In this document: in pieces, positions 3,637-58,832 of the stretch
How positions within the stretch are numbered: position 1 is the first letter of the stretch
Layout of the letters: the number at the start of each line of letters is the position of its first letter
Source: a bacterium
GTDB lineage: Bacteria; Patescibacteriota; UBA1384; JBDRDK01
DNA: 58,832 nt
Direction of reading: 5' to 3'
NCBI GenBank assembly: GCA_043820855.1
Contig: JBDRDK010000001.1
Span: forward strand, 1-58,832
Program-made: the position numbers and the translations under genes
Notes under the pieces: model-generated
Told to the model about the DNA's origin: nothing
What the model saw: the letters and a program-made list of their open reading frames with translations, nothing else
The model's database searches: none

Positions 3637-5253
3637 TTACTTGAGATCTTTAAGTAAACATTTGCCAGTCATTTCCTTGGGGATTTTAATATTATAAAGT
3701 TCAAGGATAGTAGGCGCTATATCAGCTAGCGTAAATTCAGATTGGATTATTTCAGGTAAAAGGCTACCTCGACGAATTGATTCTGGAAGAGGGGATTTGG
3801 GTAATTTATTATTTGGCGTTATATAAATCAAGGGAACTGGATTTAGAGTGTGGGTGGTTTCCGGATCCTGTTGTATCTCACCAAGCATCCTCTCCACTTT
3901 ACCGTGATCCGCAGTAATCATAACACTTGCTTCGGAGACTAAAGCGGCTTGAGTAATATTTTGAAGCGCTTTGTCTATTGTTGATACAGCACTAGCTACG
4001 GCTTCAATATTTCCTGAGTGACCAACCATATCTACATTACCAAAATTAGCTACAATAAAATCGTATTTTTTTGAACGCACAGCTTCAATAATTTTTTTTG
4101 CAATTTGTGGGGTTTGTCCTTCCGGAGTAGATTCGTAGACTTCAGGCCGCGGGGATTTAAAAAATGTTCGATCCTCGCCTTTAAATGGTTTTTCATGATA
4201 ACCGTTAAGAAAATAAGTGACATGGGCGTATTTTTCAGTTTCAGCTAAGTGAAGCTGTCTAAGATTTTTATCAGACAAAAGTTTAGTCAGAGAATTATCA
4301 AACGGTTTTTTGGGGTAAATTATTTCAACGGGCAGATCTTTGTGATAATTGGTTAGCGTGCAGAACTGTATGTTGGGTATAGGGGACAGACGCCACAAAG
4401 GTCTAAATTTTGGATCTGTAAAAACTGTGGTTAACTGCCTAGCTCTATCAGCTCTGAAATTAAAGAATATTATTGAATCGTATGGTAATACTCTAGAGAT
4501 AGATTGATTGTTCTCGTCCACTATAACAGTAGGTGGAATATTGATGTCAGTAAAATTGTTTTTATATGCATTTGCGCATACTTCTAAAGCGTTTTGGGAT
4601 TTATGTGAAGCTTTACCTTGAGTGATTGCGGTATAAGCCTGTTTTATTAGCCCCCAGTTTTGATCTCGATCCATAGCATATTGTCTACCCATAACACTGG
4701 CAACCTGACCTGTCTTTTTTTTCTGCATATGCTTTTGAATTCTATCAAGAAAAAGTATACCTTCATTTGCTGGGGAGTCAACTCCATCAGTTATTGCGTG
4801 TAAAACCACTTTTTTAATCTTATTTTTTGCTGCAAAATCAATTAATGCTTTTAAATGATCAATATGACTATGAATCTCACCGTCACTTACTAAACCTATT
4901 AAATGTAAGGTGGAGTTATGTTTGGTACAATTTTTGGCAACTTTTTTTAAAACTGGATTTTCAAAGAATTTTTTGTTCTGAATTTCAGATGAGATTCGTG
5001 ACAGATCTTGTAGTGGTAAAGTACCTGATCCAATTGCTGAATGACCGATTTCTGAATTGCCTACTTTATTATATTTTCCAACCATTTTTGAAAAAGCTTG
5101 TAACACTAGGTGCGGGTAATTTCGCCATAAATAGTTATAGACCTTGGGGTTTGCCATAGTAATAGCGTTACCTCCCCAGGCAGGACTTATACCCCAGCCG
5201 TCGAGTATAAGTAAAATTAATGGTTTAAAAAGCTGGGTTGATTTGGTTTTCAT
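3637..5253 (-). CDS. 2,3-bisphosphoglycerate-independent phosphoglycerate mutase family protein, divergent paralog
   Basis: LILDGWG, GNSEIGH, SDGEIHSH, FFNFRADRARQL, AETEKYAHVTYF, NFGNVDMVGHSGN, ITADHG, HTLNPVP. It has TDGVD instead of TDGRD and ADHGKVE instead of ADHGNAE. Confidence 0.85.
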   Translation of the reverse strand: MKTKSTQLFKPLILLILDGWGISPAWGGNAITMANPKVYNYLWRNYPHLVLQAFSKMVGKYNKVGNSEIGHSAIGSGTLPLQDLSRISSEIQNKKFFENPVLKKVAKNCTKHNSTLHLIGLVSDGEIHSHIDHLKALIDFAAKNKIKKVVLHAITDGVDSPANEGILFLDRIQKHMQKKKTGQVASVMGRQYAMDRDQNWGLIKQAYTAITQGKASHKSQNALEVCANAYKNNFTDINIPPTVIVDENNQSISRVLPYDSIIFFNFRADRARQLTTVFTDPKFRPLWRLSPIPNIQFCTLTNYHKDLPVEIIYPKKPFDNSLTKLLSDKNLRQLHLAETEKYAHVTYFLNGYHEKPFKGEDRTFFKSPRPEVYESTPEGQTPQIAKKIIEAVRSKKYDFIVANFGNVDMVGHSGNIEAVASAVSTIDKALQNITQAALVSEASVMITADHGKVERMLGEIQQDPETTHTLNPVPLIYITPNNKLPKSPLPESIRRGSLLPEIIQSEFTLADIAPTILELYNIKIPKEMTGKCLLKDLK

Positions 5254-6838
5254 TATTTTCTACCTTATTATTTTGAATATTATTATCTAATAAGCTTTTT
5301 GAGGTCATTTCAGTTGGAATCTCGAGTTTCAATAACTCTAGAATTGTTGGTGCGATATTTGATAATGTAAATCTGCCTGTTTTACGTAAATGATATTTAG
5401 TTGACTTATCGGATATAAGAATAAACGGTACTGGGTTATTTGTATGTTCAGTTTTCATATTTCCTGTAACCGGGTCTATTAATTCTTCGGCGTTTCCGTG
5501 ATCCGCAGTTAAAATTAAAACACCATTTGATTTTAGTATAGCATTAGTTATTTGTTCAATGCATTTATCTACAAATTCCAAAGCTTGTAAAGTAGCTTCT
5601 TGATTGCCTGTATGGCCTACCATATCCGGATTAGCAAAGTTTATCACTATAAAATCATATTTATTTATACTTTCAAGAGTTTTTTTTGTAATTTCACCAG
5701 CACTCATTTCTGGTGCAAGATCATAAGTTGCGACTTTTGGTGATGGAATTAATATTCTCTTTTCTCTTGGGAAAGGTTTTTCTCGGGCACCGTTGATAAA
5801 ATATGTAACATGAGCGTATTTTTCAGTTTCAGCTATATGAAGCTGTGATAAGTCCGCGTTTGATATTATTTCCGCTAAACAATTTGGAACTTCCTCATCT
5901 TGAAAAACCGGTTGAACCTTACCTTTGTATTCGCTTTCATAGGGCAACATTGATACAAAAAATAAATCCGGAATTTGTCTGCCTTTGTGAAAAGAGATAA
6001 AATTTTCCTGAGTAAAAGCTTTGGTTAATTGTCTGGCGCGGTCAGCCCGAAAATTGAAAAATATTATTGAATCATTACTAGAAATAAAACTAGTTGGTTT
6101 ATTATTTTTTTGAATTATTGTTGGTTTGATAAATTCATCACTGGTACCTTGTGAATACGACTTGCTGACCGCATTCATTGCGCTATCGGCTTTTTCTCCA
6201 ATACTCTGGGTAAGTGCAAAGTATGCTCGACTGGTTCTGTCCCAGCGATTATCTCTGTCCATAGCATAATATCTGCCACATACAGTAGCTATCTGTCCAA
6301 ATCCTAGTTTGTGCATAAAGTTTTCTAGATTTTGAATATATTTAAGTGCACTCATTGGATCACTATCTCTGCCGTCAGTAAAAACATGAATAAATACATT
6401 TGTACAATTTTGTTCTTTGCATATCTCAAGAATATGAAAAAGATGGTTGATGTGACTATGTATACCACCGTCACTAACTAGTCCCATCAGGTGTAGCTGA
6501 GAATTGTTTTTTTTAACATGCTGTATTGCTGTTAAGATTGTTTTGTTTTTTTTTAGACTGCCATCAGTAATTGCATTATTGATTTGAGATAGATCTTGAG
6601 GAATTAATCTGCCTGCCCCAATATGTATGTGCCCAACCTCAGAATTACCCACATCATGTTTTGGTAGTCCCACAGCTTCTCCCGCGGCTTCTAGTATCGT
6701 GTGGGGGTTTTCCCGCCACAGCTTATTGTAATTACGAACATTAGCAACTGAAAGTATATTTCCACCCCAAGCCGGGCTGATACCCCAACCATCAAGTATT
6801 ACTAGTACAATTGGTTTTGGTCTGATAGGATTTGTCAT
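5225..6838 (-). CDS. gpmI: 2,3-bisphosphoglycerate-independent phosphoglycerate mutase
   Basis: Full iPGM motif set: VILDGWG, GNSEVGH, SDGGIHSH, FTDGRDS, GRYYAMDRD, FFNFRADRARQL, AETEKYAHVTYF, NFANPDMVGHTGN, LTADHGNAE, HTNNPVP. Confidence 0.9.
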   Translation of the reverse strand: MTNPIRPKPIVLVILDGWGISPAWGGNILSVANVRNYNKLWRENPHTILEAAGEAVGLPKHDVGNSEVGHIHIGAGRLIPQDLSQINNAITDGSLKKNKTILTAIQHVKKNNSQLHLMGLVSDGGIHSHINHLFHILEICKEQNCTNVFIHVFTDGRDSDPMSALKYIQNLENFMHKLGFGQIATVCGRYYAMDRDNRWDRTSRAYFALTQSIGEKADSAMNAVSKSYSQGTSDEFIKPTIIQKNNKPTSFISSNDSIIFFNFRADRARQLTKAFTQENFISFHKGRQIPDLFFVSMLPYESEYKGKVQPVFQDEEVPNCLAEIISNADLSQLHIAETEKYAHVTYFINGAREKPFPREKRILIPSPKVATYDLAPEMSAGEITKKTLESINKYDFIVINFANPDMVGHTGNQEATLQALEFVDKCIEQITNAILKSNGVLILTADHGNAEELIDPVTGNMKTEHTNNPVPFILISDKSTKYHLRKTGRFTLSNIAPTILELLKLEIPTEMTSKSLLDNNIQNNKVENNENQINPAF

Positions 6839-8439
6839 ATAGTTAATATATTAGTTAGTGAATAACCGGTCATTTCAGCAGGTTTTTTTATGTGAAGTAA
6901 GTCGAGTATAGTAGGTGCTAAGTCGGCTAGTACTCCGATTGGTTGACTATTCAGAAATTGATTAATTTGATTTTGGTCTGAAGGAATATTTTTTTTGTTT
7001 TGTGGGGTAATAAGTATTACTGGTACAGGATTAGTTGTGTGATCTTTGCTGATTTGACCGGTTTCAGCAGTATACATCTCTTCAGCATTTCCGTGGTCAG
7101 CTGTGATCAACATACAATACGAATTTTTAGTAGCATTATTAACTAATATCTTTAAAGCGGAGTCAGTAGCTTCAACAGCTTTTACAGCAGCATCAAAATT
7201 TCCAGTATGACCTACCATATCCGGATTAGCAAAGTTTATTATAATAAACTGATGTTTGTGAGTATCTAAAGCTTTCCCAGCTTTTTTGACAATTTTAAAT
7301 ACACTCATTTCAGGTTTCAAGTCATATGTTGCAACTTTGGGCGATGGCACCAATATACGATCTTCGTTTTGAACCGGATCTTCTTTGCCCCCATTTAAAA
7401 AATATGTAATATGAGCATATTTTTCAGTTTCTGCAATATGTAACTGTTTCATTCCAGCTTGGGAGATAAGTTCTGGTAAGGTATTGATAATAGGTTGAGG
7501 TGGGAATATAATGGGGAAATCAAAGTGTTGATGGTATTTGATAAAAGAAATTAGGTTTAATTTTTTGTATGGGTTAGTATTAAATTGTTTTATTTGTTTG
7601 TCATAAAATGACTTTACTAATTGAACCATTCGATCTTCGCGAAAATTAAAAAATATAATACAATCCTCGTCATCTATCTTACCAAGCGGTTGGTTGTTTT
7701 CGTCGACAATTACTGTAGGACTAATAAATTCATCATTTAGATCTTTTTGATAGGCTTTTTGAATAGCTTCGTAGGCAGTTGTTGCATATTCTCCCATACC
7801 ATCAGCAATAGCTCGGTAAGCTGCTTCAGTCCTTTTCCAGCGACTATCCCGATCCATCGCATAATATCGCCCAATTACACTGCAAATTTTTCCAACACGG
7901 GATACGCGAGCTTTATCTTCGATTTTTTTTATATCTGTCAAAGCGATTTTGGGAGGAGAGTCTCTGCCGTCAGTAATAAAGTGAATACAGGTTTCGGGTG
8001 AACCGTTGTGACTTATCAAGCTTAACAAGGCTATAAGATGATCTATATGACTGTGTACGCCACCCTGACTAACTAGACCTATGAGGTGAATCTTTTTTTT
8101 GGTTTTTTTAGCTTTGTGGCAAGCATCAACCAAAATAGAGTTTCGAAAAAGACTGTTATCAAATATTGCATTATTTACACGAGCCAAACTTTGCCAAATT
8201 ACACGGCCAGCCCCAATATTGTAATGACCAACTTCAGAATTTCCTACTTCTCCCCAGGTCAGACCGACTTCTTCACCAGCCGCAGAAATACTACAGTGCG
8301 GATAATTAGTTAGATAATGGTCATAATTTGGTTTATGAGCTTTATTGATAGCATTACCAACTTTATTAGGGCTTATACCCCAACCATCCAAAATTAACAA
8401 AACCACCCCTCTGTATTTAGTAGAATCAAATTCAGTCAT
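6835..8439 (-). CDS. gpmI: 2,3-bisphosphoglycerate-independent phosphoglycerate mutase
   Basis: LILDGWG, GNSEVGH, SQGGVHSH, ITDGRDS, GRYYAMDRD, FFNFREDR, AETEKYAHITYF, NFANPDMVGHTGN, ITADHGNAE, HTTNPVP; 4-nt ATGA overlap with the next gene. Confidence 0.9.
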   Translation of the reverse strand: MTEFDSTKYRGVVLLILDGWGISPNKVGNAINKAHKPNYDHYLTNYPHCSISAAGEEVGLTWGEVGNSEVGHYNIGAGRVIWQSLARVNNAIFDNSLFRNSILVDACHKAKKTKKKIHLIGLVSQGGVHSHIDHLIALLSLISHNGSPETCIHFITDGRDSPPKIALTDIKKIEDKARVSRVGKICSVIGRYYAMDRDSRWKRTEAAYRAIADGMGEYATTAYEAIQKAYQKDLNDEFISPTVIVDENNQPLGKIDDEDCIIFFNFREDRMVQLVKSFYDKQIKQFNTNPYKKLNLISFIKYHQHFDFPIIFPPQPIINTLPELISQAGMKQLHIAETEKYAHITYFLNGGKEDPVQNEDRILVPSPKVATYDLKPEMSVFKIVKKAGKALDTHKHQFIIINFANPDMVGHTGNFDAAVKAVEATDSALKILVNNATKNSYCMLITADHGNAEEMYTAETGQISKDHTTNPVPVILITPQNKKNIPSDQNQINQFLNSQPIGVLADLAPTILDLLHIKKPAEMTGYSLTNILTI

Positions 8440-10892: not shown

Positions 10893-11095
10893 TGGTGGAC
10901 TGTACCGGATTCGGACCGGTGACCTCTACAATGCGAATGTAGCGCCCCGATTGCCAAAGTATGGTGGAGACAGTGGGATTTGAACCCACGACCTTCGCAA
11001 TGCGAGTGCGACGCTCTACCACTGAGCTATGTCCCCATACGGCGGGAAGGTCTACCAACTGAGGCCCAAAGGGTGGTCGTTGACCCTAACAGCCC
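10893..11095 (-). other. split tRNA-Ala(CGC)-like cloverleaf whose two halves flank the intact tRNA-Ala gene
   Basis: 5' piece (11095-11070): GGGCTGT TA GGGT CAACGACC ACCC T. 3' piece (10942-10893): CTACA TTCGCAT TGTAG AGGTC ACCGG TCCGAAT CCGGT ACAGTCC A CCA. Joined, they give a 76-nt cloverleaf with G3:U70. T-loop position 55 is C and the D-loop lacks GG. Confidence 0.45.
10962..11036 (-). tRNA. tRNA-Ala (anticodon CGC), CCA encoded
   Basis: GGGGACA TA GCTC AGTGGTA GAGC G TCGCA CTCGCAT TGCGA AGGTC GTGGG TTCAAAT CCCAC TGTCTCC A CCA; G3:U70 alanine identity pair. Confidence 0.9.
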
Positions 11096-16003: not shown

Positions 16004-16724
16004 TGTAAGTAACTTGTCTTTTAATCAAACAGTTTCTAAAATAAAATATTTTATAGATAGTAAAAGAAAAGGATTTGTAGTTACAGCAAATCCTGAAATT
16101 TTATATAGAGCTTACAAAGACAAAAATTATCAAAAAATTTTGAGTCAAGCTTTTTTAATTACTCCAGATGGTGTAGGAGTACTTTGGGCAGCGAGAAGAA
16201 AGGGAATGAATATAAAAGAAAGAGTCACGGGTATTGATTTAATATGGGCTTTGGCAAAATTAGCAGAATCTGAAAAATATAGAATTTATCTTCTTGGCGG
16301 TGAGCCAGCAAAAGATGGAAAAGAAGAAATCGCAAAAATTGCAGCGCAGAGATTAAAACTAATACACCCTAATATTAACATTGTCGGTGCAACCTATGGT
16401 TTCTTAAAGGATCAAGGATCAAAGGAAAAAGTAATTGAGAACATTCAACAAACTAAACCACATTTGCTTTTTGTGGCTTTTGGTGGATCTTCTAGACAAG
16501 AAAAATGGATCGCTAAAAACTTAGATAAATTTAAAAGCCCCTGTGTAGCTATTGGTATTGGTGGAGCGTTTGATATGATAGCTGGTAAATTTAAACGCGC
16601 ACCGGTCTGGATGCAAAAAACTGGATTAGAGTGGTTGTATAGAGTGATCCAAGAACCGAGTCGTATTTCACGCCTTAGGAATGTACTAAAATTTTTATTT
16701 ATTAGTTTTTTTACCAGAGATTAG
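15975..16724 (+). CDS. WecG/TagA/CpsF-family glycosyltransferase
   Basis: MEKIKILGTDVSNLSF, ITPDGVGVLWA, GIGGAFDMIAGKFKRAP, GLEWLYRVIQEPSR. I chose the internal ATG at 15975 rather than the track start at 15906, because the N-terminus then matches the family; it overlaps the previous gene by 29 nt. Confidence 0.85.
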   Translation: MEKIKILGTDVSNLSFNQTVSKIKYFIDSKRKGFVVTANPEILYRAYKDKNYQKILSQAFLITPDGVGVLWAARRKGMNIKERVTGIDLIWALAKLAESEKYRIYLLGGEPAKDGKEEIAKIAAQRLKLIHPNINIVGATYGFLKDQGSKEKVIENIQQTKPHLLFVAFGGSSRQEKWIAKNLDKFKSPCVAIGIGGAFDMIAGKFKRAPVWMQKTGLEWLYRVIQEPSRISRLRNVLKFLFISFFTRD

Positions 16725-16890
16725 CTTAGTCCGCCCGTCCTCCATAGCTTTATGCGAAGGAGGAAACCCGACCTGCGGAGCCACGCACCATTCGGTGCAT
16801 GGCAAGCCACACAGTATTCAGGTATATGGGCAAGCCATGTATCGAATAAGTAGTGCCCTCTGTACCGTATGGTACTGGGGCATAATAAAA
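16725..16890. other. GC-rich, hairpin-dense intergenic block (possible structured RNA or repeat cluster)
   Basis: Hairpins TCCTCC-15nt-GGAGGA (16738-16764), GCCACGCACC-attc-GGTGCATGGC (16780-16803) and GTACC-gtat-GGTAC with an outer TGCCC/GGGCA stem (16854-16882); direct repeat GGCAAGCCA at 16801 and 16829. Confidence 0.4.
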
Positions 16891-16892
16891 TA

Positions 16893-16916
16893 AAGACCTT
16901 TTTGAGGTCTTTTTTG
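16893..16916 (+). terminator. intrinsic terminator
   Basis: AGACC-tttttga-GGTCT followed by TTTTTT. Confidence 0.6.
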
Positions 16917-16940
16917 ATTTATGGTGAGTTTATCGAACCA

Positions 16941-16969
16941 TTGACAAAATAAGATTTTCATGCTATTAT
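16941..16969 (+). promoter_or_regulatory. sigma70-type promoter of the DEAD-box helicase gene
   Basis: TTGACA (16941-16946), 17-nt spacer, TATTAT (16964-16969). Confidence 0.65.
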
Positions 16970-16998
16970 CGTACGATGTGATTGAAGATGGTTATGCG

Positions 16999-17028
16999 GA
17001 CCTCTTTAAGAGGTTCTTTTGTTTTTTT
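16999..17028 (+). promoter_or_regulatory. terminator-like hairpin plus U-run inside the helicase 5' UTR (possible attenuator)
   Basis: GACCTC-tttaa-GAGGTT followed by CTTTTGTTTTTTT, lying between the promoter and the ATG at 17052. Confidence 0.45.
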
Positions 17029-17051
17029 AAGTCCTCGATTACAAATACATT

Positions 17052-18317
17052 ATGAATAGATACGCAACTAAATCGTCCAGTAGACCAAAGTGGTCAAAAG
17101 GACAGAGTACTTTTCATGGATCGCGTAAAAACGGGTCTTATTCGCGCTTTTCAAGAAACAACTCCTCTAGTAATAAATATGGTAGGAGGAATTTTGGTAC
17201 CAAACCAAAAAATAAACAAATAGACATATCAAACTTAATTAATAAAATGTCTATAACAACAAAAGAAGTTGAGGTCTTTACACCCAAACATACTCTCTCT
17301 GATTTTATTGAAAGTCAACCATTTTTAAATCAAGTTATAAAGCGTGGGTACAAAAGTTTGAAACCTATACAGGATGAAATTATTCCGTATATCAGTGATG
17401 GGAATGACGTAGTAGGACTAGCAAATACCGGAACCGGAAAGACAGCAGCTTTCTTGATACCTTTGGTAAATAAAATTTTGGCTAATAGAAGTCAGCAAGT
17501 TTTAATCTTGGTTCCTACAAGAGAACTTGCTTTACAGATCAATGAAGAGCTAAAAAGTATTACACATTCTTTGGGGATTCATTCGGTTGTTTGCGTAGGT
17601 GGGATGAGTATAGGGTTACAGATAAGAGACTTAAGAAGATTCAATAATTTTATTATTGGTACTCCAGGAAGAACCTTAGATCTAATGAAACGAAAGGTGC
17701 TTAAATTAGAAACTGTAAAAAATGTAGTACTTGATGAAGCTGACAGAATGCTGGATATGGGCTTTATTAATGATATTCGGTTAGTTATGAAGAGCGTAAA
17801 CCCACAACGTCAAACCCTATGCTTTTCAGCTACTATGTCTGCAGAAATTAATAAAATTATCAATGAATTTTTGAATGATCCAATAACTATTTCTGTGAAA
17901 ACTAGAGATATAGCTTGCAATATCGAACAGGATATAATTAGATTACAGGGTCGTATTAAGATCGACGTTTTACATGATTTACTTAAGAATTCTGAATTTA
18001 GAAAAGTATTAGTATTTGGTAGAACTAAACATGGTGTTGAAGATCTATTTCAAAAACTTGAAAAACGTGGAATTAAAGCCGGATCTATACATGGAAATAA
18101 AAGTCATAACGGCCGACAAAGATCATTGAAGAATTTCAAATACGGTTTTATTAACGTACTTGTTGCAACTGATGTTGCCGCTAGAGGGCTTGATATAGAT
18201 AATATAAGTCATGTTATAAATTATGAACTTCCTGAAAATTATGATGATTATATTCACAGGATAGGACGAACAGGAAGGGGAGATAAAAAAGGTAAGGCGT
18301 TAACATTTGTTAATTAA
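17052..18317 (+). CDS. DEAD-box ATP-dependent RNA helicase with R/S/K-rich N-terminal extension
   Basis: ANTGTGKTAAF (motif I), PTRELA, VLDEADRMLDMGF (DEAD), SAT, ARGLDI, HRIGRTGR. Confidence 0.9.
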   Translation: MNRYATKSSSRPKWSKGQSTFHGSRKNGSYSRFSRNNSSSNKYGRRNFGTKPKNKQIDISNLINKMSITTKEVEVFTPKHTLSDFIESQPFLNQVIKRGYKSLKPIQDEIIPYISDGNDVVGLANTGTGKTAAFLIPLVNKILANRSQQVLILVPTRELALQINEELKSITHSLGIHSVVCVGGMSIGLQIRDLRRFNNFIIGTPGRTLDLMKRKVLKLETVKNVVLDEADRMLDMGFINDIRLVMKSVNPQRQTLCFSATMSAEINKIINEFLNDPITISVKTRDIACNIEQDIIRLQGRIKIDVLHDLLKNSEFRKVLVFGRTKHGVEDLFQKLEKRGIKAGSIHGNKSHNGRQRSLKNFKYGFINVLVATDVAARGLDIDNISHVINYELPENYDDYIHRIGRTGRGDKKGKALTFVN

Positions 18318-18322
18318 AACTT

Positions 18323-20074
18323 ATGGAAATACGTAATATCGCAATAATAGCTCACGTAGATCACGGTAAGACCTGCCTTACTGATTTTTTGATGCGTCAG
18401 ACAGGGGCAGCCAAAATAGGTGTAGGTATGGATTCAAATGTATTGGAGCAAGAAAGAGGTATAACAATATACTCAAAAAATGCCTCTATTGATTATAAAG
18501 GTACTAAGATAAATATCGTTGATACTCCGGGTCATGCTGATTTTGGTTCAGAAGTGGAACGAGTATTGCGTTTTATTGATTCAGTAATATTAGTTGTTGA
18601 TGCTCAAGAAGGTCCTATGCCTCAAACCAGGTTTGTTTTGAAAAAGTCTCTAGAATTAGGTTTGAAACCTATAGTAGTAATAAATAAAATTGACAAAACT
18701 GCTTCTAGACCAGAATGGGTTCACGAAAAGGTTTTGGAACTTTTTTGGGATCTTGGTGCTAATGATGAACAATTAGATTTTACGGTTATTTATGCAATAG
18801 CCAAAAACGGTACTGCTAAATTAAATCTAAATGATGAGATGAAAGACCTAACCCCACTTTTGAATGTAATCCTAAAAGATGTTCCGGTTGCTTCTACAGA
18901 AATTCAGCTGAAAAAAGAATTTAAGTTTCAATCATTTAATTTAGCTTATGATAACTTTCTTGGACGTTTGGCAATAGGTAGGATATATGAGGGCGTTGTT
19001 AACGTAGGTGATGGAGTATTTATCAAAAAAGCTAAGGATGAAATTAGAAAAGGTAAAATAACAAAAATATATACTTTTCAAGGTTTAAATAAAAGGGAAG
19101 TAAATGAAGCTGGAGCAGGAGATATTGTAATGATTGCAGGAATAGATGATATAGATATAGGTGAAACAGTTTGTCACAGCCCATCTCAAGATGCTTTACC
19201 AGCTATAAATATTGACGAACCAACAATATCATTGAATTTTTTAGTAAATGATTCTCCGTTTTCTGGCAAAGATGGTAAGTTTGTTACTGGTAGACAGATT
19301 AAAGAAAGATTAGAAAAAGAACTAGAAGTAAATGTAGGTTTAAAGATTGATATGTCAAACCACGATCATTTCAAAGTTTATGGCCGAGGCGAATTACATA
19401 TAGCAATACTTTTAGAAAATATGCGACGTGAAGGTTTTGAATTACAAGTTTCACAGCCAAAAGTTATTTTTAAAGAAAAAGATGGTATTAAGACCGAACC
19501 ATTTGAAGAAGTAACTATTGACATCCCTAATGATATGATGGGAGCTATTATTGAAAAATTAGCCAAAAGAAAAGGAGTTATGATAGATTTATCACCGGAA
19601 CAAGAACACACACGAATTATTTTTGAAGTACCAACTAGAGGTTTACTTGGATATCGTGGTGATTTTATGATTGACACACGCGGTGAAGGTATCTTGTGTC
19701 GTCGTTTGATAGACTTTCGAGCTTTTGTAGGAAAGATTGAAAAACAAACAACCGGTTCTATGATTTCTATGATAGGTGGCAAAGCGCTAGGTTTTGCCCT
19801 AAACAACTTACAAAACAGAGGTGTGTTATATATTAAAGCTGGTACAGAAGTATATGAAGGTATGGTTATTGGTAATACTTCAAAAGGTGAGGATATGAAA
19901 GTGAACCCAATAAAAGGTAAGCAACTTACAAATATGCGTTCAAAAGGTTCTGATGATGCAATCATGCTTACCCCTCCGTATAAATTAAGTTTAGAAAGAG
20001 GGCTTGAGATTATGTGTGACAACGAATATCTTGAGGTTACACCAGAAAATATTCGTTTAAGAAAGATTAATTAG
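18323..20074 (+). CDS. typA: translational GTPase TypA/BipA
   Basis: IRNIAIIAHVDHGKTCL, DTPGHADF, NKID; overall EF-G-like layout without domain IV. Confidence 0.93.
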   Translation: MEIRNIAIIAHVDHGKTCLTDFLMRQTGAAKIGVGMDSNVLEQERGITIYSKNASIDYKGTKINIVDTPGHADFGSEVERVLRFIDSVILVVDAQEGPMPQTRFVLKKSLELGLKPIVVINKIDKTASRPEWVHEKVLELFWDLGANDEQLDFTVIYAIAKNGTAKLNLNDEMKDLTPLLNVILKDVPVASTEIQLKKEFKFQSFNLAYDNFLGRLAIGRIYEGVVNVGDGVFIKKAKDEIRKGKITKIYTFQGLNKREVNEAGAGDIVMIAGIDDIDIGETVCHSPSQDALPAINIDEPTISLNFLVNDSPFSGKDGKFVTGRQIKERLEKELEVNVGLKIDMSNHDHFKVYGRGELHIAILLENMRREGFELQVSQPKVIFKEKDGIKTEPFEEVTIDIPNDMMGAIIEKLAKRKGVMIDLSPEQEHTRIIFEVPTRGLLGYRGDFMIDTRGEGILCRRLIDFRAFVGKIEKQTTGSMISMIGGKALGFALNNLQNRGVLYIKAGTEVYEGMVIGNTSKGEDMKVNPIKGKQLTNMRSKGSDDAIMLTPPYKLSLERGLEIMCDNEYLEVTPENIRLRKIN

Positions 20075-20090
20075 ATATTGATTTAGAAAC

Positions 20091-20119
20091 TTGACAAAAA
20101 TATAAATTTATTATATATT
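20091..20119 (+). promoter_or_regulatory. sigma70-type promoter upstream of nusA
   Basis: TTGACA (20091-20096), 17-nt spacer, TATATT (20114-20119). Confidence 0.55.
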
Positions 20120-20125
20120 TTAATT

Positions 20126-20156
20126 GAAGAGTGAGTCAGTAGACGCGCTCTTTTTT
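20126..20156 (+). terminator. intrinsic-terminator-like hairpin in the nusA leader (candidate attenuator)
   Basis: AGAGTG.GTC-agta-GAC.CGCTCT followed by TTTTTT, about 10 nt after the predicted transcription start. Confidence 0.5.
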
Positions 20157-20212
20157 AACAAATACCAGCTAATGTTTAGCTTGTATTCCAGCTATTACAG
20201 GCAAACTTAAAT

Positions 20213-20272
20213 AGCGTCCCACTACGCATAAAGCTACGCGGGACTTACCCCGCAATACGGGGTAGCAAAGGA
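20213..20272 (+). repeat. GC-rich two-hairpin element, copy A, abutting the nusA start codon
   Basis: AGCGTCCC-ACTACGCATAAAGCTACGC-GGGAC-TTA-CCCCG-CAATA-CGGGG-TAGCAAAGGAACT-ATG; aligns without gaps to copy B at 35211. Confidence 0.6.
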
Positions 20273-20275
20273 ACT

Positions 20276-21484
20276 ATGGATAAAGAATTTGAACTAGCTA
20301 TTCAGCAAATTTGTGATGAAAAAGGCGTATCAAGAGAAATAGTTATGGAAACTATGAATGCGGCAATAGCTTCGGCGTATCGAAAAGATTACGGCACTCC
20401 AAGCCAAAGAATAAAAGCTGAATTTAATCCCGAAACTAAAGATGTAAAAGTATATCGGGTTTTTGAAGTTGTAGAAGAAGAGGATTTAGAAAATGAAGAA
20501 GCTCAAATAATCTTAAAAGAAGCAAAGAAAAAGAAAAAAAGTATTAAAATAGGGGATGAGATTACAGAAAGAATTGGTAACCCCCCTACTGACTTTGGAC
20601 GAATTGCGGCTCAGACAGCTAAGCAGGTAATTATTCAAAGAATTCGAGAAGCTGAGAGAGATGTACTATTTTCAGAGTTTCAAAGCAAAGAAAAATCAGT
20701 TGTAAACGGTACTGTTCAGCAGATTGAATTAAAAAGCGTAATTATTGATCTTAGGAAAATTAATGGGATTTTGCCAGTATCTGAACAAATTCCAGGAGAG
20801 AAATATTATATCGGTCAAAAAATGAAGGTGTATGTTAAAAGCGTAGAAGAAACTACCCGTGGACCACAAGTTATTCTCTCACGAGCCGATAAAGAACTAA
20901 TTCGAAAACTATTTGAAATTGAAGTTCCAGAAATTACATCTGGAAGCGTTGAAATAAAAGATTTAGCACGAGAACCAGGTCGTAGAACAAAGGTTTCTGT
21001 TATTGCTACGCAAGAAGGTGTAGATCCGGTTGGTTCATGCATAGGTCAAAGAGGCACCAGGGTACAGACAATATTAGCTGAGATTTGTGAAGAAAAGATC
21101 GATATAGTACTTTGGGACGAAAAGGACGAAACTTACATAATCAATGCATTATCCCCTGCAAAAGTTAAATCCGTTAAATTGATGAAGAATAAAGAAACTA
21201 AAGAAGGTGGGTATAAGGGTAAGGCTGAAGTGATTGTTGAGTCTGATCAATTATCTTTAGCAATAGGCAAAGACGGTCAAAATGTTCGACTTGCCAGTAA
21301 GTTATGTAATTGGGATATAGATGTATCAAAAATCGAGGTAGAAGCTGAAAAAGAGGATAATAAGAAAAAGGAAACAATAAAAGGAAAAAGAGCGAATAAC
21401 CTTAAAGATAAACAAGAAAAAAACAAAAAAGAAAAGTCAAATAAAACTGAAGAAAAAAAAGATCCCAAAAAAGATAAAAAATAA
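20276..21484 (+). CDS. nusA: transcription termination/antitermination factor NusA with K-rich C-terminal tail
   Basis: NusA N-terminal domain (ELAIQQICDEKGVSREIVMETM), S1 (VNGTVQQIE), KH repeats (GSCIGQRGTRVQ, AIGKDGQNVRLASKL). Confidence 0.95.
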   Translation: MDKEFELAIQQICDEKGVSREIVMETMNAAIASAYRKDYGTPSQRIKAEFNPETKDVKVYRVFEVVEEEDLENEEAQIILKEAKKKKKSIKIGDEITERIGNPPTDFGRIAAQTAKQVIIQRIREAERDVLFSEFQSKEKSVVNGTVQQIELKSVIIDLRKINGILPVSEQIPGEKYYIGQKMKVYVKSVEETTRGPQVILSRADKELIRKLFEIEVPEITSGSVEIKDLAREPGRRTKVSVIATQEGVDPVGSCIGQRGTRVQTILAEICEEKIDIVLWDEKDETYIINALSPAKVKSVKLMKNKETKEGGYKGKAEVIVESDQLSLAIGKDGQNVRLASKLCNWDIDVSKIEVEAEKEDNKKKETIKGKRANNLKDKQEKNKKEKSNKTEEKKDPKKDKK

Positions 21485-28651: not shown

Positions 28652-28830
28652 CCCTACGCTTCCACCTACGCCACCCACTACGCCAAGGCTTCGAGGGGGT
28701 CAAGAAGGCTACGGCGGACGAGCCGGCGGACAAGAAAGCTTCGGGTGGCAGACCATCTTAGTGAACCAAACGAACCGTAAGAAGTATATAACCCGTAGCC
28801 TTACGCAGGGGTTACACACAATATTACGTA
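28652..28830 (+). repeat. GC-rich repeat block directly 3' of tRNA-Leu(UAA)
   Basis: CTACGC recurs at 28654, 28666 and 28678 (12-nt period); CGGCGGAC occurs twice (28712, 28723); there is a degenerate copy of the hairpin-1 motif, CCC-ACTACGCCAAGGCTTCGA-GGG. Confidence 0.5.
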
Positions 28831-34146: not shown

Positions 34147-35263
34147 ATGAAAAACATCAAAGAGATAATACAAGATACTAGACAAAGGTTTGTTGAGATA
34201 GAGAGGTTACTTTGACCCCGGTGGTCTAAATACGCAGATCTCTAAACTAGAAAAACAAACTCAAAAAGTTGATTTTTGGAAAGATCAAAAAAACGCAAAT
34301 AACGTTTTTGAAAAATTAAAAACCCTAAAAAGTCAGTTAAAAGATTTGACCTATATCTCCTCAGCATTAAAAGATATTGGATCTTTATCACAGTCAGATC
34401 AAGATTTAGCAGAATCAGAGCTTCTGACTGTAAGACAAAAAATAGAAAAATTAGAAAATACAGCATATTTTTCACAGGAATATGACGATGCAGGAGCTAT
34501 TTTAAGCCTTTCTTCGGGTACTGGGGGTGTAGATGCTCAAGACTGGACAGACATTTTACTAAGAATGTATTTAAAATATTGTCAAAAACAAAAGTATCAC
34601 CCAAAAATTATAAACAAAGTGACAGCCAGTGAAGCTGGTATAAAAAACGCCCTAGTAAATATACCCGATTTATACGCATATGGAAATTTAAAAAGTGAAA
34701 ACGGTGTGCACAGATTAGTTCGAATTAGTCCTTTTTCTAGTGGAAAATCCCGTGAAACTTCTTTTGCCTTAGTAGAGATAATCCCGATCCTACCCGAATC
34801 TCAGCAGATCAATGTTCGTGATGAAGATATTAAAATTGATACTTATCGAGCTTCTGGTCACGGTGGACAGAGTGTAAATACAACTGATTCTGCGGTTAGG
34901 ATTACTCATATACCCACTGGAATTGTAGTAAGTTGTCAAAACGAAAGATCTCAACTTCAAAATAAACTTACAGCGTTAAGCATCCTAAGATCCAAAATAA
35001 CTCAACTTGAACAAGCGAATAAACGATCTCAAATAAATGAAATTAAAGGTAATGTCCAGGCTGCATGGGGAAATCAGATCAGATCTTATGTTATGCAACC
35101 ATATACCATGGTAAAAGATCATAGAACCGGTTATACTACATCTGATATTAAAAAAGTTTTAGACGGTAATATAGAAGATTTTATAAAATCCTATTTAAAA
35201 TACATAAATAAGCGCCCCACTACGCGCAAAGCTACGCGGGGCTTACCGGGCTCAGCTCGGTAG
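34147..35263 (+). CDS. prfB: peptide chain release factor 2, requires programmed +1 frameshift at 34210-34216
   Basis: Frame 0 reads MKNIKEIIQDTRQRFVEIERLL then TGA. The +1 frame continues DPGGLNTQISKLEKQ... and joins the track ORF at 34346. SPF (RISPFSS) and GGQ (SGHGGQSVN) motifs are present. Confidence 0.92.
34201..34216 (+). promoter_or_regulatory. RF2 autoregulatory +1 frameshift site
   Basis: GAGAGG (SD-like), TTA, then CTT TGA C; same spacing as the E. coli AGGGGG-TAT-CTT-TGA-C site. Confidence 0.85.
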
Positions 35264-35270
35264 CGGAGGT
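35211..35270 (+). repeat. GC-rich two-hairpin element, copy B, spanning the prfB 3' end and the ybaB SD
   Basis: AGCGCCCC-ACTACGCGCAAAGCTACGC-GGGGC-TTA-CCGGG-CTCAG-CTCGG-TAGCGGAGGTTAT-ATG; same 63-nt register to the ATG as copy A. Confidence 0.6.
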
Positions 35271-35273
35271 TAT

Positions 35274-35576
35274 ATGTTTGATAAGATGAAGGAATTATAT
35301 CAATTACAGAAAAAAGCAAGAGCGATTCAAAAAGAACTGAAGAACATCGAGGTTGAGGCAACTGCTTTGGACGACAGAATAAGAATTATTTTTAACGGTG
35401 AACAAAAAATTCAAAATTTAGAAATCGATTCTTCTTTATTTGAAGAAAGTAACAAAAAAACGGTTGAACAGGGATTGTTAAATGCAATACGAGAAGGTAT
35501 TGCTCGCTCCCAACAAATAGCAGCTGAAAAAATGAAAGACGTTGCGGGAGACTTAAATATTCCGGGCTTAAGTTAA
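35274..35576 (+). CDS. ybaB: YbaB/EbfC family nucleoid-associated protein
   Basis: MFDKMKELYQLQKKARAIQKELKNIEVEA...; about 100 aa, typical family size and N-terminal pattern. Confidence 0.8.
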   Translation: MFDKMKELYQLQKKARAIQKELKNIEVEATALDDRIRIIFNGEQKIQNLEIDSSLFEESNKKTVEQGLLNAIREGIARSQQIAAEKMKDVAGDLNIPGLS

Positions 35577-35578
35577 AT

Positions 35579-36184
35579 ATGAAAATAATAGTAGGTCTAG
35601 GAAATCCAGACAAAAAGTATCAAAACACACGCCATAATATCGGATTTAGATTTATTGAAAAACTGGCTGAGATGCCAGATATCTGTCCAGTTGATAAAAA
35701 GCTAAACTTCAAGGACAATAAGAAATTTCAATCCGAAATAGCAGAAACAAAAACCAATGGTGAAAAAATTGTATTAGTAAAGCCTCAGACGTATATGAAT
35801 GTATCAGGTACGGCAGTTCAAAAGATATTAGGTTATTATAAAGCAGAAAATACTGATTTAATTGTAATCAGCGACGACATAGATATTCCTATAGGTAGCT
35901 CGCGGATACGTTTAAATGGATCTAGCGGGGGACACAAGGGTATTCAAGATATTATACAATCCCTTGGTACTAATAATTTTATCCGGATTAAAATCGGTAT
36001 AAACACAATAGATACTGATATAGACCCTAAAAATAAGATCGACACCACGGGTTTTGTATTACAGCAGTTTCAAAAACGAGAGCTCGCAATAATAAAAAAA
36101 GTTGTAGATTCTACTATCGCGTTTTTAATTCCTTTTTTCGGATCAAAAAAGACAATAAAAGCTAAAACACTCCACTCGTTATAA
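35579..36184 (+). CDS. pth: peptidyl-tRNA hydrolase
   Basis: MKIIVGLGNPDKKYQNTRHNIGF, YMNVSG, HKGIQDI. Confidence 0.92.
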   Translation: MKIIVGLGNPDKKYQNTRHNIGFRFIEKLAEMPDICPVDKKLNFKDNKKFQSEIAETKTNGEKIVLVKPQTYMNVSGTAVQKILGYYKAENTDLIVISDDIDIPIGSSRIRLNGSSGGHKGIQDIIQSLGTNNFIRIKIGINTIDTDIDPKNKIDTTGFVLQQFQKRELAIIKKVVDSTIAFLIPFFGSKKTIKAKTLHSL

Positions 36185-38041: not shown

Positions 38042-38120
38042 GTCCCTTAGGGACTTTGGGAATTAGATATCACTACGGCGGACTTACTGAACCGGCTTAG
38101 CCGAGTTCAGTAGCGAAAGG
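38042..38120 (+). repeat. GC-rich element, rearranged copy C, abutting the rplL start codon
   Basis: GTCCC-tta-GGGAC ... CACTACGGCGGAC-TTA-CTGAACCGG-CTTAG-CCGaGTTCAG-TAGCGAAAGGATATT-ATG. Confidence 0.5.
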
Positions 38121-38125
38121 ATATT

Positions 38126-39954
<1,829 letters not shown>

Positions 39955-54945: not shown

Positions 54946-55644
54946 TTAACTTATTATTTTGAGAGCCTGCCTAGCCGCTTGTATTTGAGCTTGCTGTTTG
55001 CTTACGCCAGATCCTTGAGTTAGTTTTTGTTTACCCAGATAGACCCCGATAATAAATTTCTTTGCATGATCAGGACCACTTTCGCTCAACACTTTATAAG
55101 TTGGTGTAATATTTTTTTGAGCTTGGCAAATTTCCTGTAATTGACTTTTTGCATCCAAATATAATTCATTTTTTAGAATAGTGCCAAGACTATCTAATAC
55201 CTGCGCTTTAATAAATTGTGCTGTTTTGTCAAATCCGAGATCTAAATAAATAGCGCCTATTAAGGCTTCAAAGGTGTTAGCTAGTAGCAAGTCATTATCT
55301 CTACCTTGATTTTTCTCTTCACCTTTTGACAGTAACAGATATTTGTCTAAATCTAGTTTTCTTGCTACTTTTGCAAGATTTTTACCTTTTACCAAAGCAC
55401 TTCGCAAACTAGTAAGCTCACCTTCGTTTTTATTATAAGCTCGATATAAATTTTCCGTAACAATTAATTCCAGCACAGCATCACCTAAAAACTCTAGTCT
55501 TTCATTGCTGGATAACTTAAAGTTTGAATGCTCATTTAAATAAGATCTGTGTACAAATACCTGTTCTAATAATTCCAGGTTATTGAAAGAGTCTCCGATA
55601 ATTTTTTGTAAATCTACAAAATTAGGTTTTTGGATTTTCATCAT
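54946..55644 (-). CDS. rnc: ribonuclease III
   Basis: NERLEFLGDAVLEL signature and a C-terminal dsRBD (GPDHAKKF...GSGVSKQQAQIQAA). Confidence 0.93.
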   Translation of the reverse strand: MMKIQKPNFVDLQKIIGDSFNNLELLEQVFVHRSYLNEHSNFKLSSNERLEFLGDAVLELIVTENLYRAYNKNEGELTSLRSALVKGKNLAKVARKLDLDKYLLLSKGEEKNQGRDNDLLLANTFEALIGAIYLDLGFDKTAQFIKAQVLDSLGTILKNELYLDAKSQLQEICQAQKNITPTYKVLSESGPDHAKKFIIGVYLGKQKLTQGSGVSKQQAQIQAARQALKIIS

Positions 55645-56858: not shown

Positions 56859-58832
56859 TTATATCACGATATTTAAAATCTTGGAAGGGATATATATGTG
56901 CTTTTTGATCTTTTTGTTTTTTAAATATTTTGTTACGTTTTTTTCTTTTTGTGCAAGCTCAAGTACTTCTTTTTCTGTATAGGTAGTTGGCACAATAATT
57001 TTTCCTCTTATTTTACCATTCACCTGAATTACTACTAGACCCTCTTTTTCTTTTTGAATTTTACCGATTTCGGGCCATTTTTGTTCATATACATGACCAC
57101 CAAAATCTAATTCATCCCAAAGTTCGGAAGATAAATGCGGAGCAAAAGGGAAAAGAATTATAAGAAAATCTTTTAAACTATCTCGATCAATCCCAATTTT
57201 ATATATTTGGTTCACATATTCCATCATTGAACTTATTGCTGTATTGAATCGCAAATTTTCTATGTCATTTGTTACTTTTTGAATTGTTTTATCCAAATCA
57301 ACTCGAGACTTAAGTTTGTTGGTGATTTTTTGATCAATTTGCCAAACTCGATCCAAAAATCTTTTTATTCCAATAATACCCTTAGTATCCCAAGGTGCAG
57401 CATCTTCCAGTGGACCTATAAACATTTCGTACATTCGAAGAGTATCAGCTCCATACTTTACAATAATTTTATCTGGATTTATTACATTACCAAGAGATTT
57501 CGACATCTTACGTCCATCTTGAGCTAAAACCAAACCCTGATTACGCAATTTCAAAAATGGTTCATCAAACTCTATGTATCCCATATCTTTCAAAGCTTTA
57601 ATCATAAACCTAGAATAAAGTAAATGCATTACTGCGTGCTCAGCACCACCAATATAAAGGTCTACAGGCAGCCATTTCTTTATCTTGTCTTTGCTAAACG
57701 GTTGTTTGGTATTTTGTGGATCAGTATATCTTAAAAAATACCAGGAAGAATCAACAAAAGTATCCATAGTATCGTTTTCTCGCTTTGCATTACCGCCACA
57801 TTTTGGACATTTCACACTGTAAAAACTTTTAGATTTTGCAAGAGGGGACTCACCAGTAGGTAGAAAGTCTACATCATCAGGTAATTCAACTGGCAGATCT
57901 TTTTCCGGCACTGGAATAGTCGTATATTCTTTCCCATCAATAACAACTTCATTAATTTTGATTTTTGATTTTTGATTTTTGATTTCCCAACATTTACGAC
58001 AGTAAATGATGGGTATTGGCGCACCCCAATATCTTTGCCTTGAGATTAACCAATCCCGCAATTTATACTGAGTTTGTAGTTTGGAATTTGGAATTTGGCT
58101 AATAATTTTTTTGGCATCACGAGGCCACTCTAAACCATTTAATTTTCCCGAATTAATAATAATCCCATTTCCAACATAATAATCATATCCGCTATTAATC
58201 CAAAATAACCAAAGATCAAGTTCAGAACAATTAAAATTATTTGGATTTATATTTTCGAGATCTAACCAAGTAACTTTATGTTTCTCTTTTTCTTCTTTAG
58301 AAATATTATCTTGTTCTTCATTTATTAATTCAAATAAAATCGCAGTTGCATAAGCTTTTCTATTTTCATTTTTATGGGCGGCATAATATTCGGCTTGAAC
58401 TTCAATTCCGAGTTTTCGGATAAGCTTCAAGTTTTTATAACCAGTTTCTTCGAGTACTTCTCTTTTTGCCGCTGTAATAATATTTTCATTTTTATTAACC
58501 CCGCCGACTATGAAAGTAGTCCAGGGCTGCTTTTTCCAATTTAAACAAAGAAATTTTCCAGTTTTTGGATTACGTACTATGGCTTGGATAGTTTTTCTTT
58601 CTATAGTTTTTTTGTTTTTAATTGGTGGATTTTTTACGTCAATCCTACAAGGCATAATTACTGGTTTGATAGACAATCCGTACTTTTTTGCAAACAAGTA
58701 ATCCCGTTCATCGTGCGCAGGTACGCACATAATTGCGCCAGTGCCATAAGAAGATAACACGTAATCTGAAACCCAAATTGGCATCTCTCCAGCTGTTAGG
58801 GGATTGATCGCTTTTATTCCTTTTAATTCAAC
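56859..58832 (-). CDS. leuS: leucine-tRNA ligase, C-terminal about two-thirds (continues past the right window edge)
   Basis: The frame is open to nt 58832 (VELKGIKAINPLTAGEMPIW...). YGTGAIMCVPAHDERDYLFAKKYGL, RDWLISRQRYWGAPIP, CPKCGG..RENDTMDTFVDSSWYFLRY, GGAEHAVMHLLYSRF, KMSKS. Confidence 0.93.
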   Translation of the reverse strand, partial: VELKGIKAINPLTAGEMPIWVSDYVLSSYGTGAIMCVPAHDERDYLFAKKYGLSIKPVIMPCRIDVKNPPIKNKKTIERKTIQAIVRNPKTGKFLCLNWKKQPWTTFIVGGVNKNENIITAAKREVLEETGYKNLKLIRKLGIEVQAEYYAAHKNENRKAYATAILFELINEEQDNISKEEKEKHKVTWLDLENINPNNFNCSELDLWLFWINSGYDYYVGNGIIINSGKLNGLEWPRDAKKIISQIPNSKLQTQYKLRDWLISRQRYWGAPIPIIYCRKCWEIKNQKSKIKINEVVIDGKEYTTIPVPEKDLPVELPDDVDFLPTGESPLAKSKSFYSVKCPKCGGNAKRENDTMDTFVDSSWYFLRYTDPQNTKQPFSKDKIKKWLPVDLYIGGAEHAVMHLLYSRFMIKALKDMGYIEFDEPFLKLRNQGLVLAQDGRKMSKSLGNVINPDKIIVKYGADTLRMYEMFIGPLEDAAPWDTKGIIGIKRFLDRVWQIDQKITNKLKSRVDLDKTIQKVTNDIENLRFNTAISSMMEYVNQIYKIGIDRDSLKDFLIILFPFAPHLSSELWDELDFGGHVYEQKWPEIGKIQKEKEGLVVIQVNGKIRGKIIVPTTYTEKEVLELAQKEKNVTKYLKNKKIKKHIYIPSKILNIVI
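58176..58655 (-). other. NUDIX hydrolase domain inserted within LeuRS
   Basis: A perfect Nudix box GGVNKNENIITAAKREVLEETGY (GX5EX7REUXEEXGU) lies at 58437-58505, inside an insert of about 160 aa between KPVI and NSGKLNGL. Confidence 0.75.

Follow-up and report, generated by a model that had tools for sequence, protein, structure and literature searches.

GC-rich double hairpins before nusA, ybaB and rplL in a Patescibacteria genome: probable insertions of a short palindromic element

A GC-rich double hairpin stands directly before the ribosome-binding sites of nusA, ybaB and rplL in the 58,832-nt stretch of bacterial DNA that we have analysed (the window), and it raises the question of whether such an element is a conserved signal in the control of these genes or a sequence that has arrived in front of them from elsewhere. 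The window has a GC content of about 27-42% per kilobase, in a genome of about 34% GC, and carries housekeeping genes; the closest protein relatives belong to the Patescibacteria (the candidate phyla radiation), with the NusA of Berkelbacteria at about 60% identity, and a NusA-based locus search of the genome contig collection returned distant relatives only, at no more than 56% identity. The genes around the three sites were assigned by Pfam: BipA/TypA (18323-20074) and NusA (20276-21484) at the first, the main frame of release factor 2 (RF2, 34346-35263), YbaB (35274-35576) and peptidyl-tRNA hydrolase (35579-36184) at the second, and the ribosomal proteins L10 (37428-37949) and L7/L12 (38126-38803) at the third.

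Other features of the gene content are recorded here in their own right. Three tandem paralogues of cofactor-independent phosphoglycerate mutase (538, 537 and 534 aa) occupy 3637-8439 of the minus strand, and a leucyl-tRNA synthetase open reading frame (ORF) (56859-58784, minus strand), from which the N-terminal part is absent, has a NUDIX match at residues 65-181, between the editing and the catalytic parts. Directly 3' of a tRNA-Ala(CGC) gene, at 10893-10961 of the minus strand, lies what is apparently the 3' two-thirds of a second tRNA-Ala(CGC), comprising the anticodon arm, the T arm, the 3' strand of the acceptor and CCA; it may be the scar of an integration or of a duplication.

All three copies of the double hairpin lie on the forward strand. 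Copy A (20212-20265), in the 5' UTR of nusA, has a 48-nt core between two TAGs that are 51 nt apart: the 5' TAG (20212-20214) is followed by hairpin 1 (20216-20244), the trinucleotide TTA (20245-20247), hairpin 2 (20248-20262) and the second TAG (20263-20265), after which come AAGGA (20268-20272) and, after 10 nt, the nusA ATG (20276). Copy B (35213-35263) consists of a 48-nt core and a TAG, with hairpin 1 at 35214-35242, TTA at 35243-35245, hairpin 2 at 35246-35260 and the TAG at 35261-35263; GGAGG (35265-35269) and the ybaB ATG (35274), again 10 nt further, follow. The core length shared by A and B is a multiple of three. Copy C, which the first-pass annotation had described as a rearranged form before rplL, is confirmed as such (38042-38113): its first part, GTCCC-TTA-GGGAC (38042-38054), is the stem of hairpin 1 with the loop shrunk to TTA, and the remainder comprises a collapsed loop remnant, CACTACGGCGGAC (38071-38083), TTA (38084-38086), a long hairpin 2 (38087-38110) and TAG (38111-38113), so that the copy ends 12 nt 5' of the rplL ATG (38126).

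The element is genuine, recurrent and structured, and its stems differ between copies by compensatory changes. Copies A and B, said earlier to align without gaps up to the ATG, do so over 66 nt with 74% identity (repeat family D11); the pattern of the 19-nt loop, described as nearly invariant, occurs twice in the window against 0.03 expected, and two matches were found in none of 100 shuffles. Stem 1 has T-A in one copy and C-G in the other, and stem 2 differs by a C-G to G-C swap and a G.U pair, exactly as first described. Both hairpins are recovered in the minimum free energy (MFE) folds of the copies, at -22.2 kcal/mol for copy A (z -2.55), at -33.5 kcal/mol for copy C (z -3.06) and at -24.7 kcal/mol for copy B, whose z of only -0.84 is no better than that of shuffles. 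The 50 nt upstream of nusA, ybaB and rplL are the most structured among the 50 gene starts of the window, and these 50 starts show no overall trend that would make hairpins before Shine-Dalgarno (SD) sequences a general habit of the genome. Together with one copy each in L003 and L007, two loci of a related strain, there are five composite copies, at four independent sites in two genomes; a regular expression for TTA, hairpin and TAG matched only A, B, L003 and L007 over 1.8 Mb, and a scan of the genome contig collection for the hairpin-2 pattern of B and L003 gave no match.

The history of the three sites was read from relatives, whose NusA is 91% (L003), 90% (L001), 84% (L002) and 80% (L123) identical to that of the window, and whose RF2 is 74-87% identical. 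Before nusA, the element is absent from all four relatives compared: in L001, L002, L003 and L123, the promoter and the leader hairpin with its T-run are kept and run straight into the SD and the ATG. At the RF2-ybaB junction, it is likewise absent from four of four (L006, L007, L008 and L124), the spacer of L006 being 9 nt. At the rplJ-rplL junction, one of three relatives is filled: L007 has a B-like copy, GGGACTTA-CCGAGCTGAGCTCGG-TAG, in the same place as copy C, while L006 has a spacer of 24 nt and L008 an unrelated AT-rich hairpin. L003 (an assembly of SRR24954098, the same strain as L007) has a B-like copy, which reads ...GGGGTTTA-CCGAGCTCAGCTCGG-TAGCGGAGG, before a gene of 92 aa, and at this site the window has a 19-nt spacer only and no element. 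From this comparison of filled and empty sites it follows that the family sits at different sites in genomes about 10% apart at the protein level, and copies A, B and C are evidently recent insertions. Orthologous presence, looked for as the mark of a conserved cis-regulatory leader or riboswitch of nusA, ybaB or rplL, fails in the relatives; because the orthologous sites of close relatives are empty, a conserved regulatory motif is unlikely, and with it the conserved translation-control or processing site that had been among the candidates of the first-pass annotation.

The promoter before nusA (20091-20119) matches at 11 of 12 positions. Just 3' of it, at 20126-20156, lies the conserved hairpin with its T-run, GAAGAGTGAGTCAGYAGACGCRCTCTTTTTT, also found in L001, L002, L003 and L123, which has the appearance of a terminator or attenuator in the leader of the nusA operon.

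Copy B bears on the gene that precedes it. In L006, L007 and L008, RF2 ends in ...INK, followed by a stop codon; in the window, the stop after the corresponding AAG codon is gone, and RF2 reads 16 codons (RPTTRKATRGLPGSAR) through copy B and terminates at the copy's own TAG (ORF 34346-35263). Insertion B has, by this comparison, removed the stop codon of RF2 and added 16 residues to the predicted protein. Read along the gene strand, the core leaves two reading frames open in A and three in B; that at least two frames of this orientation contain no stop codon would explain, as we propose, why the tail of 16 residues on RF2 is tolerated. As regards the other end of the same gene, prfB (34147-35263) begins with a short frame that runs from the ATG at 34147 to CTT TGA C (34210-34216), with GAGG upstream, and appears to use the classical programmed +1 frameshift, the Pfam-matching frame carrying on from CTT TGA C.

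GC-rich stretches of other kinds lie in coding sequences of the window as well. L7/L12 has about 35 extra N-terminal residues in comparison with three relatives (rplL codons 2-36, 38129-38233), in which a GC-rich stretch (38150-38218) contains a perfect 9-bp hairpin, CCAGAGGCT...AGCCTCTGG; the segment has the look of a GC-rich insertion, in frame and from another sequence family. At 39353-39394, a GC-rich patch (SLDSARD) occupies a variable loop of tRNA-guanine transglycosylase, where the relatives are AT-rich and have unrelated residues.

The junctions of the insert are alike in A, B and L003, with AG before it and TAG at its end. Viewed as a possible target-site duplication, in three junction pairs only, AG is present at both junctions of A, B and L003, and TAG at both junctions of A and L003, the latter having TAGCGGA at both ends of the insert; the left junction is TAG in A and L003 and AAG in B, so a simple duplication of TAG at B needs an extra loss of 3 nt, or else a target of AG only. 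The junctions, the length and the open frames are compatible with insertion at AG or TAG with duplication of the target, and with tolerance in reading frames.

Downstream, the element ends in TAG(C/T), 1-3 nt 5' of the SD, and its orientation relative to the downstream gene is constant (five of five copies); the register to the start codon, earlier called fixed, is nearly so, with 10, 10, 10, 12 and 13 nt from TAG to ATG in the five copies. It had been assumed that this 3' end, TAGC and a purine run, supplies the SD, and a small mobile element donating an SD was one of the candidates put forward. At rplL, the SD and the spacer of L007 (filled) align with those of L008 (empty), and at the 92-aa gene the filled site of L003 and the empty one of the window have AGYGGAGRTYTT-ATG in common; for nusA and ybaB, a native SD fits the comparison, though less clearly than at the other two genes. 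Since the SD and the spacer at rplL and at the 92-aa gene match those of element-free relatives, donation of the SD is unlikely; the SD is most likely native to the downstream genes, and the purine run is probably their own. The mobile part of the earlier candidate is the one that we retain.

The reading that we favour is that copies A, B and C are probably recent insertions of a short, GC-rich, non-autonomous palindromic mobile element into an AT-rich Patescibacteria genome, and that the element is probably selfish. Such DNA would spread via a trans-acting activity, possibly exerted on the single-stranded hairpin, and would insert at AG or TAG, with the short target probably duplicated. It would survive only where it is harmless, which in a compact genome leaves the short interval from a stop codon or 5' UTR to the SD, and we propose that the nearly fixed register results from this; the constant position and orientation we infer to come mainly from what the compact genome tolerates, and tolerance between the stop codon and the ribosome-binding site is the best reading of the element's place. 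Transcription would carry it along with the host genes, and any influence on the stability or translation of the mRNA would be secondary. Against the mobile-element reading we count that there are five composite copies only, at four independent sites, that the left junction of B is AAG and not TAG, that hairpins 1 and 2 disagree over the strand, and that a mobilising enzyme or autonomous partner was not found among the window's ORFs or the neighbours of the phage copies described below; the Pfam scan of the window's ORFs detected no transposase, RAYT or endonuclease domain.

The abutment to the SD in five of five copies, one of them in a nusA 5' UTR that offers ample room, counts against this reading too, as it could point to selection for a function and not to tolerance alone. 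According to this alternative, the element is an exapted cis-acting RNA, retained since it helps expression, whose hairpins act in the mRNA, just 5' of the SD, as a stabiliser or insulator, for instance by shielding a processed 5' end, by setting neighbouring cistrons apart or by keeping the SD unpaired. All five copies end 1-3 nt 5' of the SD in gene orientation, element-free relatives often have an unrelated AT-rich hairpin there (rplL in L008, ybaB in L007), the upstream regions of nusA, ybaB and rplL are the most structured in the window, and RNase III is encoded in the window (54946-55644); but the same genes manage without the element in the closest relatives, with spacers of 9 and 24 nt in L006, the G.U that hairpin 1 has on the opposite strand becomes an A.C mismatch in the mRNA, and the fold of copy B is no better than shuffles (z -0.84). 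A beneficial role as an SD-adjacent hairpin is possible, and we regard the exapted RNA as a rather unlikely explanation of the element.

The preferred mobile element is of modular and nested build. Its first module is hairpin 1, which belongs to a widespread family, and its second, which is lineage-specific, consists of TTA, a variable GC hairpin and TAG. Hairpin 1 has 29 nt and 7+2 pairs, its 7-bp stem being followed by a G-W-A/G-W-A internal loop and then by a short inner helix that carries a small loop, and it reads best on the strand opposite the genes: copy A, on the strand opposite nusA, has GTCCCGC-GTA-GC-TTTAT-GC-GTA-GTGGGAC, and the consensus on the strand opposite nusA and ybaB is (CTTG)YC-CRCC-G-W-A-GC-[YTYR or TTTAT]-GC-G-W-A-G-GYGG-R. 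The two hairpins are in conflict over the strand, as the G.U of hairpin 1 in A and B lies on the minus strand (A.C on the mRNA strand), whereas hairpin 2 of B has its G.U on the mRNA strand and pairs better on the plus strand. In five independent copies of hairpin 1, 93% of cells are paired and four pairs have changed on both sides, and the observed covariation score was reached by one of 500 shuffles; in 16 distinct sequences, whose alignment was fitted to the covariance model and hence leans towards structure, 91.6% of cells are paired, with seven both-sided pair changes and one pair that occurs in all four Watson-Crick types.

Over 1.54 Mb, the covariance model gave matches at E<1 only in Patescibacteria loci (0.49 Mb), and none at E<1 in the 1.04 Mb of other phyla; L031, L021, L015, L054, L013, L003 and L089 are new members of the family. 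The model also recovered the two further copies that had been noted in the window, one inverted and one degenerate. The inverted copy, GTCCTCC-ATAGCTTTATGCGAA-GGAGGA (16737-16765, forward strand, 44.7 bits), runs counter to A and B and makes up the 5' hairpin of a distinct structured element, GC-rich and about 190 nt long (16725-16915). A WecG-family glycosyltransferase gene precedes this larger element, whose end is formed by a shared intrinsic terminator, AAAGACCTTTTTGAGGTCTTTTTT; homologues are located in L001 (2458-2652 and 7172-7352) and a largely decayed remnant in L123 (2440-2645), and Rfam gave no match to it. The degenerate copy (28660-28719, minus strand), in which one hairpin lies within another's loop, is part of a GC-rich tract of nested or tandem degenerate hairpin-1 units (28652-28754, minus strand) directly after tRNA-Leu; the tract is absent from L002, where the tRNA is followed directly by a terminator. 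Nesting of a hairpin within a hairpin is seen in L089, in L013, at 28660-28719 of the window and in the element of L003. A different copy of tRNA-Leu in L003 (10775-10893) is followed by GC-rich hairpins and by TTCCCACCTCGCCCACCA, which is similar to the 3' end of the tRNA-Leu found in L002 and in the window and is apparently the remnant of an attachment site.

A metagenome scan with AAGCTACGCGGGRCTTACC returned 31 matches inside one conserved gene of an organism of 56-59% GC, three chance matches (L096, L097 and L105) and three true ones, from a single organism of 43% GC (L089, L092 and L122). A nested hairpin of L089 agrees with the minus strand of copy A at 22 of 22 nt and next at 12 of 13 nt; its place is the 5' portion of a 23S rRNA group I intron with a LAGLIDADG-type ORF: the Rfam LSU match spans 3705 nt against a model of 2925 nt, and Intron_gpI matches with 31.6 bits (E 4e-6), below the gathering score, its core match lying elsewhere in the intron than the hairpin. 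The intron (L089 3685-4395, minus strand) is inserted near E. coli position ~1926 of 23S rRNA. Further copies of the 43% GC organism are located in the rRNA spacer and at the beginning of a transcript-like unit; in the rRNA intron and spacer, the settings with a known transcribed strand, it is the GWAG strand that is present in the RNA. The rRNA spacer of L089 also has GC-rich hairpin tracts after the tRNA.

A viral scan for the loop of A and B gave two chance matches only; the consensus CGCCGWAGCYTYRGCGWAGGCG, by contrast, matched IMG/VR exactly at 79 places, spread over 72 stretches on contigs of 42-71% GC, against a chance expectation from base composition of fewer than about two. Covariation is seen at positions that the scan pattern did not constrain: the pair outside the pattern is T-A in 35 and C-G in 30 of 78 cases, and the loop-closing Y..R pair, left free in the pattern, is C-G in 52, T-A in 24, T-G in one and C-A in none; at the flanking pair, G.T stands in 30 cases against A.C or C.A in five. 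Since the internal loop of these copies is always G-W-A opposite G-W-A, which makes no duplex palindrome, the conserved object is a single-stranded fold (RNA or ssDNA). CTTGYC is conserved 5' of the stem, and tandem and inverted doublets occur (L144, L142, L168 and L172), the inverted ones (L142, L168 and L172) 20-170 nt apart. The adjoining ORFs are ordinary phage genes (portal, capsid, terminase); the 139 that were searched include no recurrent transposase or reverse transcriptase and no RAYT/TnpA domain. By third-position GC periodicity, where both flanks are clear, the GWAG strand is antisense to the local genes in 14 cases versus 4, a modest bias that agrees with A, B, L003 and the remaining gene-adjacent Patescibacteria copies; an ORF-coverage test of the high-GC phage contigs found open frames on both strands almost everywhere.

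To judge from the Rfam and literature searches given below, the hairpin-1 family is an undescribed one, which occurs also in other candidate-phyla bacteria, in an rRNA intron and in many phage contigs. We tentatively raise a wider possibility, which we ourselves find somewhat doubtful, that hairpin 1 is an undescribed cross-phylum structured module, recognised by widespread machinery and propagating as a minimal 'hairpin parasite', with the element of nusA, ybaB and rplL as its lineage-specific derivative. The module would consist of an outer GC stem, a symmetric G-W-A/G-W-A purine internal loop, an inner helix of 2-3 bp and a loop of the YUYR or UUUAU type; if the idea is right, the places open to it would include the leaders of mRNAs, coding sequence, the introns and spacers of rRNA, post-tRNA sites, its own loop and phage genomes.

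The evidence for a single-stranded structure also invites comparison with REP/RAYT-like or IS200/IS605-like ssDNA elements, in which case a G-T-A-G hairpin would be moved by an HUH tyrosine transposase encoded elsewhere. GTAG or GAAG is present on both arms of the loop, the conserved internal loop of purines against purines, in which GWA faces GWA and not TWC, speaks for single-stranded structure over a duplex binding site, the inverted doublets (L142, L168 and L172) are REPIN-like, and G.T at the flanking pair favours one strand (30 versus 5). The definition of REP, however, needs a terminal unpaired tag, and here the motif lies within the outer stem, on both arms (PMC3733652); no RAYT/TnpA domain is present in the window or among the 139 ORFs next to the phage copies, and REP families are usually confined to few species (PMC3733652), whereas the hairpin-1 loop is conserved across contigs of 42-71% GC, all of which makes this explanation improbable to us. 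Lastly, an operator at which a trans-acting RNA- or DNA-binding factor coordinates nusA, ybaB and rplL as a small regulon would suit a conserved loop with variable stems, typical of protein-recognised hairpins, and genes that belong to the transcription and translation apparatus, but it is highly improbable, given that the element is absent at the same genes in relatives and present before the unrelated 92-aa gene in L003, and that the hairpin is also found in an rRNA intron, in an rRNA spacer, after tRNA genes and near phage structural genes.

With the copies read as insertions of a mobile element, a small, tightly packed candidate-phyla genome would be seen to tolerate GC-rich hairpin insertions that rewrite gene ends and junctions. 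Such elements likely produce spurious or extended ORFs in metagenome annotation, and the strand opposite the GWAG strand translates to peptide strings such as SAFAKASADK. The same loop across very different hosts and phages, the covarying stems and the purine-purine loop point to an undescribed shared recognition system, the identification of which could yield a new mobilisation mechanism for minimal palindromes, or a new RNA or ssDNA motif.

The first-pass annotation had also considered that the element might prove to be a known Rfam family or to belong to a known REP or MITE class. Rfam 15 gave no match on the elements at the gathering score, nor at E<=1 in a search of the whole window; there was also no match at E<=10 on 16600-17100 and 20150-20300, and none at E<=1 on 12 phage-contig loci. 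In the literature we found no description of such elements in Patescibacteria, nor of their sequence strings. The strict definitions of REP and MITE fail, as detailed below, the general behaviour being alike.

Several other known structures were compared with the element and rejected. There is no U-run after either hairpin, as an intrinsic terminator or attenuator would have, and a terminator scan has no site at the hairpins of copy A (near B, its sole match is weak and on the minus strand); a promoter is rejected in that there is no -10 element, and an rRNA boxA in that a proper boxA lies elsewhere in the L089 spacer. As a fragment of a group I intron, the element has no recognisable catalytic core (P3-P9), and nothing similar is found in the window; for a DGR, an integron attC site or a TIGR array, neither partner genes nor an array are present. 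Asymmetry is defining for the K-turn and the sarcin-ricin motif, and the internal loop of hairpin 1 is symmetric (3x3).

Rickettsia palindromic elements (RPEs) can lie in frame within genes of a reduced AT-rich genome, where they add peptide segments, and are roughly 100-150 nt long; the present element is likewise a palindromic repeat in a reduced AT-rich genome, from which RF2 gains 16 residues, but it has 48 nt and an unrelated sequence, and lies mostly at gene junctions. MITEs of the Correia, ERIC and BOX type are small, non-autonomous and co-transcribed, and their hairpins can be substrates of RNase III and alter expression; the element differs from them in being far smaller and without terminal inverted repeats or promoter elements. 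A MITE with terminal inverted repeats is rejected, as the ends, CGTCCC... and ...ACGGGG, are not inverted repeats and complementarity exists only within each hairpin. We know of no insertion sequence related to the element. Its two-hairpin layout is shared by the double-hairpin elements of fungal mitochondria, those of Allomyces.

REPs are palindromes of 20-40 bp with an unpaired GTAG or CGTC tag at one end, and their families are usually found in one or few species, some spanning several (PMC3733652). Our element resembles them as a palindrome of 20-40 nt that contains GTAG and is intergenic and co-transcribed, sometimes intragenic or in inverted pairs (PMC3733652), and hairpin 1, with 29 nt and 93% of cells paired, is a hairpin-forming palindrome of the REP size range. 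It is not a REP in the strict sense, its G-W-A-G being present on both arms and enclosed by the outer 7-bp stem (a 3x3 internal loop), and not a terminal tag; it also differs in that no RAYT is seen (window ORFs and 139 neighbours of phage copies) and in being placed 5' of starts, not 3' of stops.

In yeast mitochondrial GC clusters, an AG target is duplicated, the hairpin is constrained, and units merge and are shuffled (PMC4478555). They differ from the element in that the latter lies in a bacterial chromosome, has an unrelated sequence and a 3' end that always abuts the SD, and has a hairpin-1 loop that is conserved across phyla and also present in phage contigs. The element shares with clusters such as GC42 the scattering of GC-rich hairpins in an AT-rich genome with presence/absence polymorphism among strains (PMC4478555), and, further, AG at both junctions, a structure that is kept while the sequence drifts, units that merge or nest, and no encoded enzyme. 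It behaves as an element of the GC-cluster type, a likeness of behaviour only, and on these shared traits the yeast mitochondrial GC clusters appear to be its closest behavioural analogue.
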